NCBI RefSeq assembly: GCF_056712565.1
Contig: NZ_CM160072.1
Length of the DNA stretch: 64,000 nucleotides
Reading direction: 5' to 3' (one strand)
Shown: one piece after another, positions 37,463-55,554 of the stretch
Position numbering within the stretch: position 1 is the first letter of the stretch
Layout: each line of letters opens with the position of its first letter
Notes under the pieces: generated by a model
The model's input: the letters and a program-made list of their open reading frames with translations, nothing else
Database searches by the model: none
What the model was told of the DNA's origin: nothing
Translations under genes and position numbers: made by a program

Positions 37463-37669
37463 ATGGCTACCCCTGTTTCGCTGATGGATGACCAGATGGT
37501 CGACATGGCGTTTATCACTCAACTTACCGGCTTAACCGATAAGTGGTTTTACAAACTCATCAAAGATGGGGGCTTTCCTGCCCCCATCAAAATGGGGCGC
37601 AGCTCCCGCTGGCTGAAAAGTGAAGTGGAAGCCTGGCTGCAGGCGCGTATTGCACAGTCCCGTCCGTAA
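37463..37669 (+). CDS. alpA: AlpA-family phage-type transcriptional regulator
   Basis: 68 aa, MATPVSLMDDQMVDMAFITQLTGLTDKWFYKLIKDGGFPAPIKMGRSSRWLKSEVEAWLQARI; start by frame within ORF 36959..37669. Confidence 0.75.
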   Translation: MATPVSLMDDQMVDMAFITQLTGLTDKWFYKLIKDGGFPAPIKMGRSSRWLKSEVEAWLQARIAQSRP

Positions 37670-37748
37670 TTTCTGACCGTTATCCGTTCACCCGCAGCAG
37701 ACGTAATCTCCGGCCTGCCGGCGGCATTCTGCTGCCTGTTATATCCCC

Positions 37749-38366
37749 GTGAGGAATATGAAAATGAAACAACAGTATCAGACCCGCTACGAATGGCTCC
37801 ACGAAAGCTACCAGAAATGGCTGACCGGCTTCACCCGGCACGCCGTATTCTGGGGCGTGTGTCATCCGAATATCTACTACTTCCATAATCTGACGCCCGG
37901 TTGGGTGTCATTCAATGGTGAAAAACCGGAGATTGCCATCGTACCCCAGAGCCTGCACCGGCTGATTTATGGCCCTGACAAACGGGCCACACCGCCCCTG
38001 GATGATGATCTGATAGTGAATTTATGCACCAGTGAACATCTGCTGGTTCATCATCCGATGCTGGAAGGCATTCTCCTGTCTGAATGTGAACGTCTGAGGC
38101 AGCGTTCTCTGGCAAATAAACTGATCAGCCTCTTCCGTCAGTTTGGTGGCACGGAGTTGCGCCTCAAACTGGTCTGGCTTTGCTGGCTTGATTTAATGAC
38201 CGGAAACTGCCTTGACGACTGGACGGAGAATCTGAAACGGAAATCAGAAAAAGAGCTGGAGGAATGGATCATCAACCGTCAGAAGCAGAGCGCAGCACTG
38301 ACGGATCTGATGGATCAGTACGTGCTCCTGTCATACCGCACAACGGTTGACGATAAGCGCACCTGA
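37749..38366 (+). CDS. Hypothetical protein, 205 aa, no recognised domain
   Basis: ORF immediately downstream of alpA; Cys/His-containing, no TM segments. Confidence 0.5.
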   Translation: MRNMKMKQQYQTRYEWLHESYQKWLTGFTRHAVFWGVCHPNIYYFHNLTPGWVSFNGEKPEIAIVPQSLHRLIYGPDKRATPPLDDDLIVNLCTSEHLLVHHPMLEGILLSECERLRQRSLANKLISLFRQFGGTELRLKLVWLCWLDLMTGNCLDDWTENLKRKSEKELEEWIINRQKQSAALTDLMDQYVLLSYRTTVDDKRT

Positions 38367-38588
38367 TGCCAGTTGTTTCAGGGAAGCTGGTATCCGGGCA
38401 GGGTGCCAGGGCTGACTGAACGGCCTGTCTGCCTGCCGTTTCGCTCTCCGTGCGTTCTGTCACACGCTGCACCTGAACGCCGGACTGCGGGCACGCAGAC
38501 AGGAAAGTCGCAGGCTGGAACTTCTGACCGGCGGGTATCAGTTATATGCCTGTTGATTCATCACCACCACGCAGCTCCTGAGCTTTAG

Positions 38589-38628
38589 TTCATCACCGAT
38601 ATTCATACATCTGAATATCGGTGATGAA
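38589..38628. repeat. Perfect 17-bp inverted repeat (TTCATCACCGATATTCA-TACATC-TGAATATCGGTGATGAA) between two convergent genes
   Basis: 17/17 complementary arms with 6-nt loop; no flanking T tract on either strand. Confidence 0.6.
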
Positions 38629-38687
38629 ATCCCCATAATAATCAATCATCTAAGTCTGAAGCATAATGGAGAAAAACTGCTCACCGG

Positions 38688-40172
38688 TTACTTCGCTCTC
38701 AGCTTATTGTAGTGATAACCCGAGGTAAAAATACCAGAGACATCAGACAACTTTAAACTGGCTATCTGGGGAAGCAGAACATACATGGTTTTTCCTTCCG
38801 GCACGACAGAAAGCCTGAACTGAGATTCAAGAATGTTCAGCAATGCGTTCAGTTTTTTCCTGTTTCTGAACCGGCCCGGGCCACACTGGAGAATATAATT
38901 TTTCCTGACACGGGGCGGGCATTCTCCGCGGCACTCCTCAATGAGCCAGTCGAACAGCTCCTCGGCGTCCTTCTGCTGCAGTTCAGATTCATCAGGTAAC
39001 GCAAATAATTTTTTATATTCATCTGTGTACCACGAACTTATTACGACAGCAGACGTCATGATATCGGCAGAGATTTTCCCTTCACCATAGCTGAAATACT
39101 GAAATAACGCTGCAATTCTTGCAATGTTTTCTGTTTTTTTTGAAACATGTCCCCGAAACGGGCTTAAGGGTCCGGAAGGGGATAAATCCTGCTCCAGAAC
39201 ATTATAGTGCTCAATAAATATTTTTTGCGCTTCAGGCGAAAAATGCAGACAATACCGTTCATCCTCACTGGATTTTTCAATACTGCCTCTGGCCAGTTCC
39301 ATTAATCGTTCATGAAATGCCGTTAATGATCCTCCCGGAATCACAGCTCCGTTAATAAAGCGTTTCCCCTGCGTGGTTGCAGGTTTACTGATAAGACAAC
39401 GGGCAAGAAAACCACTGTCCCTGGCAACAGAACCTTTTCGCTCCATATATCGGTCAAAAAGACCGGGTTGCACCATGAGGGATAACGTCATTCTGGCATT
39501 TTCAATCATCTGTTCGGGTTCATTCTTTCTGTCCACAGACAATACAGAGCCATCCCACATTTTGTTAATAAAAGGCAACTCAGACAGGGTATATCCATCA
39601 AATATAATACCGGCTTCATCTGACATAATACCAACTGAACGCCATTTACCACAAAGCTGATTCTTAATTGCCGCAGTCGTGGCATCATTAAAAATGAATT
39701 TATACCTCACAGGTTCTTCCGCACTGTTTTTCTGAAGTACTTCCAGTTGTCTGAGGGTTTCTGACTCATCCGCGCCTTTGCGGAGTTCTTTATTCAGTTT
39801 TGACAACAATGCTTTTTTCTGAGCCTTTAAAAGCTCTTCCTTGTTTTTCCAGACAGCCAGTTCACTTTTGTATCTGGAATATAACTGCATCTCCTGCTGG
39901 TACAGGGGCTTCATTAATAATTTGTCCACTGCGGTTTTTCGTTCTCCGGACTCGGCAAGCGTCAGGAAAAAAAGAGAGACCGGCCCCCGCAGTGTATTCA
40001 GTCTGCAGACATCAATCAGATTCTGGCAGACAAGTGAAACAGCGCCCAGGGCAGACGCTGCCACAAGCCCAAGGGGAGCCTGCGTAATTTGCTGAGCTTC
40101 AATAACGGCATCACGAATGAGTGGAGGCAGCGAACTCAGGGGAAACTCATCACAAGGCTGACCGAATGACAT
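38688..40172 (-). CDS. DUF3987-like (YfjI-like) protein of phage-satellite/integrative-element type
   Basis: ORF 38688..40241; start probably MSFGQPCDEFPLSSLPPLIRDAV…; N-terminal pattern typical of DUF3987 (recollection). Confidence 0.5.
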   Translation of the reverse strand: MSFGQPCDEFPLSSLPPLIRDAVIEAQQITQAPLGLVAASALGAVSLVCQNLIDVCRLNTLRGPVSLFFLTLAESGERKTAVDKLLMKPLYQQEMQLYSRYKSELAVWKNKEELLKAQKKALLSKLNKELRKGADESETLRQLEVLQKNSAEEPVRYKFIFNDATTAAIKNQLCGKWRSVGIMSDEAGIIFDGYTLSELPFINKMWDGSVLSVDRKNEPEQMIENARMTLSLMVQPGLFDRYMERKGSVARDSGFLARCLISKPATTQGKRFINGAVIPGGSLTAFHERLMELARGSIEKSSEDERYCLHFSPEAQKIFIEHYNVLEQDLSPSGPLSPFRGHVSKKTENIARIAALFQYFSYGEGKISADIMTSAVVISSWYTDEYKKLFALPDESELQQKDAEELFDWLIEECRGECPPRVRKNYILQCGPGRFRNRKKLNALLNILESQFRLSVVPEGKTMYVLLPQIASLKLSDVSGIFTSGYHYNKLRAK

Positions 40173-41241
40173 AGTAACCTCACTATACACAGATATAAAA
40201 GCACTGCAATTCTGGCTATTAATAGCAAAAATAGCAGTCAAATCAATATGAGGTAAAATTTTTTGTTGATTTAATGGTTAAATAATAACCACAGTGTATT
40301 TTGCTGCTGAAGAAAGACAAAATGAATCTGTGTGTCCCCTCCTTCCCTTCGGAGCACATCCACTATTCAAATTTTACACAACCACGTACGAACAAAAAGC
40401 ATCATCCCGGGTATTGCAGATACCGGTTTCCTGCCGGGAAGAATCATAAACAGAACACCGGGAATAACGCCTTCAGGAATCACCCCCCCTCCTGAAGAAG
40501 AATAAAATAAAGAAGACTACAGTTCCTGCACTGAATGCTGAGTACAATATTTTATGGACAGGATGACATTTTTATAAATAACAAAAACCATTTAATACTG
40601 ATACATCAATAAAATACTTCTTCCCTGCTGACACAGATAAAATGCACCATTTTTTCTTCAAATACTTCTGTATAATCGCCAGCCAATGATGAGAATGGAT
40701 TAAAATAACACTTCTTCGACAAACACAAAAACAGCCTTCATTTTACATCATCATCCAGTTTCAGTTAACCCCGGACGAGCGACAGTGTTTCAGTACAGGA
40801 ATTAAAAGCCAGCTTTTGCTCAGTAAAACACACTCAACTAATAATATCTCAGCAGATATTATCCTGACCAGGACACCTCACATTACTGAATTCTCTTCCG
40901 ACAGTATCACTGCACAAATAAAAAGAACGGGATAAATATTCAGACCGGAAGAATGGTGTCACAAAAGCATTTAATCATTACGCATGACCAGGAAGGGAAA
41001 CACTTAACCACATGGTATCAACAGATATCATTACGTGTGCACTCTTATAAAAAACACACAGAAGAAGTAAGATAATTATAAACGTAAATTTAATATCTCC
41101 CACTGACATCTCCCCCACAATACACTAAAAAATACTCACAGCAGTAAACACAGATACACCTGATAATCATACAGCCGATAAATATTTTCCCCTTTACGGA
41201 GAAATCAGCCTGCTGTTTAACAATAACGGCGTATTTTCATG

Positions 41242-41282
41242 GAAGGAGATCACCCAGTAACGGATAAGTCCTGATCTCCTTC
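41242..41282. repeat. 11-bp perfect inverted repeat with GATC in each arm, about 120 bp upstream of the GTPase gene
   Basis: GAAGGAGATCA-(19 nt)-TGATCTCCTTC. Confidence 0.4.
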
Positions 41283-41401
41283 ATGTTAATACGCAACAAT
41301 CCCATCGATTCAAAACAATTTCAGACAGATATTATCTCCGTGAATCCCCCGCCACCTTTCCGGTGCGCGGGGTTTTGTCTTTTTTCACCGGGAATACATG
41401 T

Positions 41402-42274
41402 ATGAATCCGTCTGATGCCATTGAGGCAATTGAAAAACCGCTCTCCTCCCTGCCTTACTCACTTTCCCGTCACATCCTGGAACATCTGCGCAAACTCACC
41501 AGTCACGAACCCGTGATTGGCATTATGGGTAAAAGCGGGGCCGGTAAATCCTCACTCTGTAATGCACTGTTTCAGGGGGAGGTCACCCCGGTCAGTGATG
41601 TTCACGCCGGCACCCGGGAAGTACGGCGCTTCCGTCTGAGTGGCCACGGTCACAGCATGGTTATCACTGACCTGCCCGGGGTGGGCGAGAGCCGGGACAG
41701 GGATGCAGAGTATGAAGCCCTGTACCGTGACATTCTGCCCGAACTGGACCTGGTGCTGTGGCTGATTAAAGCCGATGACCGCGCCCTGTCTGTGGATGAG
41801 TATTTCTGGCGACACATCCTGCACCGGGGACATCAGCAGGTGCTGTTTGTGGTGACGCAGGCCGACAAAACGGAGCCCTGCCATGAATGGGATATGGCCG
41901 GCATTCAGCCTTCTCCCGCACAGGCACAGAACATTCGGGAGAAAACGGAGGCGGTATTCCGTCTGTTCCGGCCCGTACATCCGGTTGTTGCCGTATCGGC
42001 CCGCACCGGCTGGGAACTGGATACGCTGGTCAGTGCGCTAATGACAGCACTTCCCGACCATGCCGCCAGTCCCCTGATGACCCGCCTGCAGGACGAGCTG
42101 CGCACGGAATCTGTCCGCGCTCAGGCCCGTGAACAGTTTACCGGTGCGGTGGACCGGATATTTGACACGGCGGAGAGCGTCTGTGTTGCCTCTGTTGCCC
42201 GTACGGTTCTGCGTGCCGTCCGTGACACGGTGGTCTCTGTTGCCCGCGCTGTATGGAACTGGATTTTCTTCTGA
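41402..42274 (+). CDS. YeeP/YkfA/YfjP-type GTPase (CP4 prophage family)
   Basis: ORF 41363..42274, start MNPSDAIEAIE; G1 motif GKSGAGKSS, G3 DLPG; precedes the Ag43 gene as in CP4-44. Confidence 0.8.
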   Translation: MNPSDAIEAIEKPLSSLPYSLSRHILEHLRKLTSHEPVIGIMGKSGAGKSSLCNALFQGEVTPVSDVHAGTREVRRFRLSGHGHSMVITDLPGVGESRDRDAEYEALYRDILPELDLVLWLIKADDRALSVDEYFWRHILHRGHQQVLFVVTQADKTEPCHEWDMAGIQPSPAQAQNIREKTEAVFRLFRPVHPVVAVSARTGWELDTLVSALMTALPDHAASPLMTRLQDELRTESVRAQAREQFTGAVDRIFDTAESVCVASVARTVLRAVRDTVVSVARAVWNWIFF

Positions 42275-55208: not shown

Positions 55209-55554
55209 TTTTGTATACCTGTATTAAACCGGGGAAATGCTCATCTTAACCCTGTTTACCCGGAGAGTTGATGCAGATTGCCAGTGGCATGATTTTATAG
55301 AGATATTTTATTCTTTTACATGAAATAAACCAGCATACCATTTGAGCGATCGCCCGCTGTTCCCCCATACTGTAAAGCCGGAGACATGCTCCGGCTTTAC
55401 AGTATTACTGAGAATACACCCATCAAGCATAATCGAAGGTTCAATATCGCCCCTTTTTGATCGCCAGCGATTCGTCACAGTGCAGACGGTTGCCGTCACT
55501 CACTAAATTATGGGGGACAGTGAACAACAGGTTGGCTCACTGGCAAGAACCCGA

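Follow-up and report, generated by a model that had tools for sequence, protein, structure and literature searches.

Genetic Organization of the Locus

The window analyzed in this work, the whole stretch of 64 kb, comes from an E. coli chromosome, and 601 bp of it were 100% identical to many complete genomes. From the RefSeq annotation of strain 7/2 and from Pfam, the locus was recognized as a decayed CP4-type island lying downstream of the fec operon. Within it, alpA and hypA were followed by a palindrome and by yfjI (on the minus strand); after an AT-rich non-coding stretch of 1.1 kb came a YeeP-like GTPase gene and Ag43, and the usual DUF905, DUF932, antirestriction, RadC, YeeT, YeeU and CbtA genes were found beyond Ag43. 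The features around the palindrome were the following:

37463-37669, plus strand: alpA-type HTH regulator gene (Pfam Phage_AlpA and annotation), heading the plus-strand unit that runs towards the hairpin
37764-38366, plus strand: hypA, an uncharacterized gene of ~200 aa (205-aa ORF) after alpA (annotation)
~38460-38556, plus strand: relic of a hypB-type gene (190 aa; pseudogene, 3' end only), stop codon at 38554-38556
38557-38565, plus strand: TTCATCACC 9-mer, third copy, 32 nt before the left arm
38562-38755, no strand assigned: lineage-specific segment of ~195 bp, containing the palindrome and the codons for the last ~25 aa of YfjI (alignment and protein comparison)
38589-38605, no strand assigned: left arm of the palindrome, TTCATCACCGATATTCA (sequence and repeat search)
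38606-38611, no strand assigned: spacer or loop of the palindrome, TACATC, 6 nt (GAUGUA in the minus-strand RNA)
38612-38628, no strand assigned: right arm of the palindrome, TGAATATCGGTGATGAA (sequence and repeat search)
38688-40172, minus strand: yfjI-family gene (DUF3987, predicted mobile-element helicase; WP_001297234.1, RefSeq)

No match to hypA was obtained in Pfam, PHROG or NCBIfam. The product of yfjI matched the Pfam profile DUF3987 (E = 1.5e-95) and the PHROG 2373 DNA helicase profile (E = 5.5e-82), and no sequence match to it was found among solved structures. The DUF3987 domain is a helicase domain found in mobile elements; 5'-3' helicase activity has been demonstrated for one member (PMC11724360), and the domain has been predicted to stand in for known replicative helicases beside primases (PMC5862659).

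Several other observations were made on the island. The 1.1 kb of non-coding DNA between the yfjI start and the GTPase gene (40242-41362; 28-45% GC) contained several promoter-like sites. When the window was compared with strain 7/2, a stretch of 4.37 kb (L001 6464-10834) was found to be missing at a junction located at ~37134-37144, where there was an 11-bp overlap. The missing DNA held the 5' part of the IS66 tnpC gene, tnpB, tnpA and two zinc-ribbon genes, together with an inovirus-Gp2/YagK-YfjJ-like gene and two small ORFs. The hyp family of ~200 aa was always located after AlpA (37764-38366; L002 3227-3799; L037-L043) and was widespread beside it. In Klebsiella, Salmonella and Yersinia, the core of the island consisted of GTPase and ~300-aa genes diverging from AlpA, hyp and a Gp2-like gene, and defense cargo, namely BREX (L037) and Dnd (L042), was located beyond the AlpA-hyp core of these genera.

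Sequence and Predicted Folding of the Palindrome

The arms of the palindrome were 100% complementary in a repeat search, and hence formed the perfect 17/17 inverted repeat with a 6-nt loop that had been described in the first-pass annotation. The distances given there to the two flanking genes were accurate as well. The right arm ended 59 nt before the stop codon of yfjI (38688-38690, minus strand), which had been described as a DUF3987-like stop 60 bp away, and the left arm began 222 nt beyond the end of the 205-aa ORF (38366), for a claimed distance of about 220 bp. A hypA transcript would meet the hairpin 222 nt after its stop codon, and the yfjI mRNA would hold it 60 nt into its 3' UTR.

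The absence of a U tract was also borne out: no T run followed the stem on either strand, the tails located 3' of it being AUCCCCAUAAUAAUC (plus) and CUAAAGCUCAGGAGC (minus). The stem was AT-rich, with six G-C pairs out of 17, and the region 38589-38628 was left unflagged by a simple terminator scan of the window. Since the U tract was absent and the stem was AT-rich, the palindrome does not correspond to a canonical intrinsic terminator, in agreement with what had been proposed for it. With bidirectional intrinsic terminators it shares a symmetric hairpin centered between convergent stop codons, but it has neither their A/U-tract flanks nor their G+C-rich stem. Both of these traits were present in a second perfect 17-bp palindrome of the window (55367-55405, ATACTGTAAAGCCGGAG-ACATG-CTCCGGCTTTACAGTAT), which, with its G+C-rich core and its AAA and TTT flanks, looks like an ordinary bidirectional intrinsic terminator.

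The number of perfect stems of at least 17 bp with loops of 3-10 nt expected per 64 kb was estimated, under equal base frequencies, to be ~3e-5, and the longest perfect stem obtained in 60 first-order Markov simulations of the window was 13 bp. A stem of this kind is therefore unlikely to have arisen by chance, as had been claimed. Nevertheless, the argument that a stem so improbable must be functional is unsafe, because a perfect stem can be created by a single template-switch mutation (PMC8794818).

The folding energy predicted for the palindrome as RNA was -25.4 kcal/mol for the plus strand (z = -8.4) and -26.2 kcal/mol for the minus strand (z = -7.2), and as folded DNA it was -17 kcal/mol. 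In a sliding 50-nt scan, the palindrome was the most stable window of its 6-kb region (top 0.2%). A known RNA family was rejected, since no Rfam covariance model matched the region 37000-41500 at E values up to 1.

Distribution of the Palindrome

A single copy of the palindrome was present in the window, even when 3 mismatches were allowed, and a second copy was not found in the 24-kb island. A 171-bp query was detected in 1178 of the 5426 complete E. coli genomes, in a total of 1461 places and with no more than three per genome, and all 1461 places lay under or beside a gene of the YfjI family. The first-pass annotation had considered that the same palindrome might recur across the genome as a generic repetitive element; the search returned a single locus type, beside yfjI. 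Since every genome copy was beside yfjI and the other matches were to the same locus, the palindrome is locus-specific. A dispersed REP-like repeat was rejected, because there was only one locus type in 5426 E. coli genomes, with one to three places per genome. The palindrome resembles REP/BIME elements in being intergenic, in the absence of a U tract and in that it could stabilize the upstream mRNA, but it differs from them in its single locus, its AT-rich and perfect stem, and the lack of a GTAG-type head and of a RAYT.

Plasmids and phages yielded no genuine match, the sole "plasmid" matches being mislabelled chromosomes, and the one IMG/VR contig that contained the palindrome pattern was the same locus in reverse orientation. 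On these grounds, a plasmid or phage origin was rejected. In metagenomes, a loose 9-N6-9 pattern retrieved 64 further copies of the yfjI locus together with unrelated short palindromes.

The geometry of the palindrome, with inverted arms around a 6-bp asymmetric spacer in a mosaic region, could correspond to the core of a site-specific recombination system (17-6-17, lox/dif/hix-like), and the orientation of yfjI, inverted relative to the alpA-yfjI order of K-12, would count in favor of such a core. Abutted ends or a remnant of a mobile element could also be considered. We regard this group of explanations as most improbable. A partner site was found neither in the window nor in the 24-kb island, no recombinase gene was annotated within 12 kb, and by inspection the palindrome was unlike dif and the IS ends of this window. 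The ends of a mobile element are argued against by the single context observed in 5426 genomes, plasmids and phages and by the lack of target duplications. Compared by eye, the palindrome does not appear to fit the consensus sequences of dif, CRP, ArgR, LexA, Fur or the DnaA box.

Regarding the flanking gene families, 16 generic YfjI loci (from relatives ~50% identical) had no conserved downstream palindrome, and no unusual hairpin followed the stop codon in 14 generic YfjI loci with a co-directional downstream gene. A conserved feature of YfjI genes was rejected for this reason. The identities within the YfjI family left a gap between at least 81% (E. coli only) and ~55%, and because of this gap there were no intermediate relatives for covariation. 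The comparison of hyp genes comprised hypA variants that were 82-85% identical and ~60% homologues in Klebsiella, Salmonella and Yersinia. The DNA downstream of them was unrelated and had no long palindrome, and thus a conserved feature after hyp genes was also rejected.

Allelic Variation in the Stem

When a 60-nt query was used, 1092 of the 1178 genomes were identical, which is explained by the whole locus being at least 99% identical, and most of the others differed at position 38634, outside the stem. A diverged group of alleles, A', was ~5% different over 181 nt. In H10407 and A41, the change 38596 C>T occurred alone and gave a T.G pair, and in UMNF18 and the STEC1575 group it was accompanied by 38621 G>A, giving a T-A pair. 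All four A' alleles carried 38626 G>A and an inserted A, by which the third pair from the base was broken, and all of them kept a 14-bp stem of -17 to -18 kcal/mol. The pair 38596/38621 was seen as C-G, U.G and U-A across alleles, and as a T.T mismatch (38621 G>T) in the metagenome contig L110. Additionally, 38617 A>G was found in strain THO-008. The loop TACATC was invariant in every allele seen.

In a covariation test with 8 alleles, one pair had changed on both sides, and the same occurred in 388 of 500 shuffles. A depletion of SNPs in the palindrome was not seen either, with variable sites at ~4 of 40 positions inside it and at ~14 of 140 in the flanks. There was no sign of primary-sequence constraint, and the evidence for constraint on individual pairs was weak.

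These results bear on a neutral explanation, according to which the palindrome is the by-product of one replication template switch (an inverted duplication) in a recombination-prone spacer and has no function. The hairpin would hitch-hike in a young, nearly clonal island lineage, and the re-symmetrization of its arms would be mechanistic, not selected. We consider this unlikely, while giving it serious weight. Template switching can make a perfect stem in one event and can repair existing stems (PMC8794818), the near uniformity of the 1178 genomes is accounted for by the identity of the locus as a whole, conservation was not in excess of that of the flanks, and in the diverged alleles the stem is eroding, with 14 of its 17 bp left and T.G and T.T states at one pair. 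On the other side, a 14-bp perfect core has outlived ~5% divergence of the flanks, which is not decisive. The palindrome shares with the template-switch hairpins of Monttinen and Loytynoja (2022; PMC8794818) the perfect arms, the short spacer, the restriction to one lineage and one re-symmetrized pair; it differs from them in that the switch points were unseen and lineage B was unalignable in this segment (see below). Template switching may well describe the origin of the hairpin even if it is now used.

A hypB Relic in the Spacer

The hypA-yfjI interval of 322 bp was not simply intergenic. The relic located at ~38460-38556 had 73-77% identity to the 3' ends of hypB genes, and its frame, ending with the TGA at 38554-38556, reads ...ARRQESRRLELLTGGYQLYAC, the hypB equivalent being ...ARKREKRELELMIDEYLLYAC. 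This stop codon lay 33 nt ahead of the palindrome. The left neighbor had been given as the 205-aa ORF, and this convergent ORF is indeed present, but the hypB-type relic is closer to the palindrome.

An intact hypB, with the palindrome straight after it and the same YfjI, was found in a few genomes and in a metagenome contig (L031/L032, L137). On the basis of these forms, the ancestral arrangement had the hairpin at the center of a 131-bp spacer between convergent genes, 33 nt from the hypB stop codon and 60 nt from that of yfjI. The presence of the hypB relic in the spacer indicates, therefore, that the locus is a recombinant of two island lineages.

An Unrelated Hairpin in the Sister Lineage B

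The same order of AlpA, hypB and a convergent YfjI was found in lineage B (L002; 786 genomes, ~795 copies). The YfjI protein of this lineage was 91% identical to that of the window; the two were identical through residues ~420-465 and unrelated in the last ~25 residues. The comparison of lineage B with the intact-hypB form showed identity through the hypB stop codon and the following TTCAT, then ~195 bp that were unalignable, comprising the spacer and the last ~75 nt of yfjI, and then ~92% identity. The C-terminal tail of YfjI (38688-38755, the last ~25 codons) runs past the conserved core of the family, which ends near residue 465. From their sequences, 3'-end replacement seems to have given rise to the tails of both lineage A and lineage B.

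No trace of the palindrome was found in the segment of lineage B, and no half-site at up to 3/14 mismatches was found in 8.6 kb. At the equivalent position this lineage had a hairpin of unrelated sequence, CCGTCACCC...GGGTGACGG, with predicted folding energies of -24.0 (plus) and -20.5 (minus) kcal/mol, which was in the top 1.9% of the 50-nt windows at its locus. The hairpin of a diverged B' allele (L174, ~9%) reached -21.3 and -26.3 kcal/mol. In all, four alleles, two of which are non-homologous, keep a hairpin at this position.

The same L174 (NZ_CM149575.1, 470-830) represented a fourth mosaic form, composed of hypA, part of a window-type spacer, and the B-type hairpin and YfjI, and joined at a short CCGG(G/A)C homology. 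In the four configurations (A, B, C and D) the breakpoints fell to the left of the hairpins and were clustered in ~130 bp. As for other copies, of the contigs P0001 and P0005 one was an IS3-truncated copy and the other B-type, and neither was informative. In one E. coli assembly, the yfjI homologue was interrupted near its 3' end by an IS3 (L020 4440-4547), resulting in a chimeric 494-aa ORF.

The location of the palindrome in a ~195-bp lineage-specific segment of a mosaic region, with the breakpoints of four configurations so close to each other, is consistent with a neutral template-switch product. The occurrence in lineage B of an unrelated hairpin of equal stability at the same position, kept in a 9%-diverged allele, speaks against it, although again not decisively.

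Possible Functions at the DNA Level

A protein-binding site had been among the functions proposed for the palindrome. This option was weakened, because the arms were no more conserved than the flanks, one pair had changed symmetrically and the half-site was absent from lineage B. In particular, we find it very unlikely that the palindrome is an operator to which a dimeric regulator (AlpA or the hyp protein, for instance) binds. The two-fold symmetry and the nearby HTH gene would suit such a role, but both genes end towards the palindrome, which is a long way from any start codon and has no promoter-like site adjacent to it. In addition, half-sites of 17 bp would be unusually long, no other copy was found in the island, the symmetric change from C-G to T-A would weaken both half-sites instead of compensating, and the palindrome was absent from sister islands with AlpA and hyp homologues.

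Origins of replication are located next to replication-helicase genes in several satellites and islands, as in the case of the ori of SaPI/PICI elements and of ori/crr in P4; in SaPI/PICI elements the origins lie directly downstream of rep genes. Palindromic helicase-loading sites are found in papilloma and polyoma viruses. The palindrome resembles the SaPI/PICI/P4 origins in its proximity to a mobile-element helicase gene, its short repeated motif and, possibly, its AT-rich neighborhood. It differs from them in that it has no iterons, is absent beside a 91%-identical helicase and is not kept in the wider YfjI family.

The repeated motif is the 9-mer that opens each arm. Four exact copies of it were present in the window, three of them within 72 bp and at spacings of 32 and 31 bp, that is, ~3 helical turns. 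The first 5 nt of the copy at 38557-38565 are part of the conserved context of the hypB stop codon. This third copy is probably not essential, as a natural 22-bp deletion (L073) removes it with the palindrome intact. The GC content at 38550-38700 was 37-40%, compared with 50-66% to the left; the 3' part of yfjI has this composition in any case.

These features could be the remnant of a replication module, in which the palindrome would be an origin-like loading site or an extruded cruciform for YfjI, or a nick site for an inovirus-Gp2/YagK-like protein. We find this improbable. DUF3987 proteins serve mobile elements as replicative helicases (PMC11724360, PMC5862659; PHROG), the palindrome lies 60 bp from the helicase gene with the AT-rich stretch next to it, the three 9-mers are in phase, the variable C-terminal tail of YfjI was swapped along with the segment, and a REP_ORF2-G2P-like protein is encoded where the island is more complete. 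Nevertheless, the 9-mers do not form an iteron array, since there are just three, two of them being the palindrome arms and the third one deleted in L073. Furthermore, lineage B lacks the half-site in spite of its closely related YfjI, a conserved palindrome was found neither at generic YfjI loci nor after hyp in the AlpA-hyp-Gp2 islands of other species, and the sequence of the arms was not conserved above background. In this window a function at the DNA level would be vestigial, because the Gp2 gene has been deleted and there is no integrase nearby. The literature on the CP4-57 origin offered nothing relevant. A more specific proposal, in which the hairpin or cruciform would belong to an undescribed CP4-type replication module, acting in YfjI loading or in HUH-type nicking by the Gp2/YagK-like protein and with the YfjI tail giving specificity, seems quite improbable to us.

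Discussion

The explanation that we favor, tentatively and with somewhat less than even confidence, is that the palindrome encodes a stem-loop without U tract that defines and protects the transcript 3' ends of alpA-hyp, of yfjI or of both. Among the functions proposed in the first-pass annotation, that of an RNA stability or 3'-end element fits best, because the palindrome is central between convergent stop codons, lineage B has a hairpin of equal strength and the U-less form corresponds to that of Rho-dependent 3' ends. The central position, the unrelated hairpin of lineage B, the persistence of a hairpin and the unconserved arms suggest that the structure matters as a hairpin and not as a duplex recognition site. 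The lack of any unusual hairpin at generic YfjI loci with a co-directional downstream gene lends further support to a role at convergent 3' ends. Most likely, the palindrome is an ordinary type of feature, another case of a known class of hairpins.

In Rho-dependent transcripts of E. coli, stable stem-loops without U tract are found at the steady-state 3' ends, where they protect against PNPase and RNase II, and a region with C>G follows (Dar and Sorek, 2018; PMC6061677). The palindrome agrees with this description in being stable (-25.4/-26.2 kcal/mol), in its location 33 and 60 nt past two stop codons and in having no U tract. As in these stem-loops, an upstream A tract and a U-rich tail are both absent, and the hairpin would be expected to act as a barrier to PNPase and RNase II; on the plus strand, the sequence just past it has a mild excess of C over G, which may correspond to their C>G region. 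Unlike them, it has a stem of 17 bp that is perfect and AT-rich, it would serve both strands, and the minus strand shows no C>G. The 80 nt of plus strand located just 3' of the hairpin (38629-38708) were AT-rich, with 20 C and 11 G, and would fit a Rho-utilization region for read-through following the published pattern (PMC6061677). On the minus strand, the 80 nt downstream of the hairpin contained 20 C and 23 G, with no C>G enrichment.

According to the mechanism that we propose, the palindrome would be the DNA template of a very stable stem-loop located midway between the alpA-hyp (plus) and yfjI (minus) units. With no intrinsic terminator on either transcript, RNA polymerase would run past the stop codon, through the hairpin and into untranslated or antisense sequence, and termination beyond it would depend on a factor (Rho) or on collision. 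The 3'-5' exonucleases would then trim the transcripts back to the hairpin, by which the 3' end of each mRNA would be fixed and protected, and the hairpin would also limit antisense read-through into the opposing gene. That the arms are perfectly symmetric is most likely due to a single template-switch mutation rather than to stepwise selection.

Several aspects go against this 3'-end function. Compared with typical terminator-like hairpins, this one has a longer and more perfect stem with a higher AT content. The support from covariation is statistically empty, with a T.T mismatch in L110 and the third pair broken in four alleles. The variability inside the palindrome equals that of the flanks, the minus strand lacks C>G, and just two independent lineages back the idea that a hairpin is wanted at this position.

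Should the hairpin instead be a loading or nicking site for YfjI, it would open a way into the question of how CP4-type islands replicate, if they do. If it is a 3'-end hairpin, as we tentatively propose, it would help to place transcript boundaries in the annotation of an island that is very common in E. coli, occurring in about one fifth of the complete genomes, and it would serve as a clean example from nature of a hairpin that was probably made in one step by template switching.
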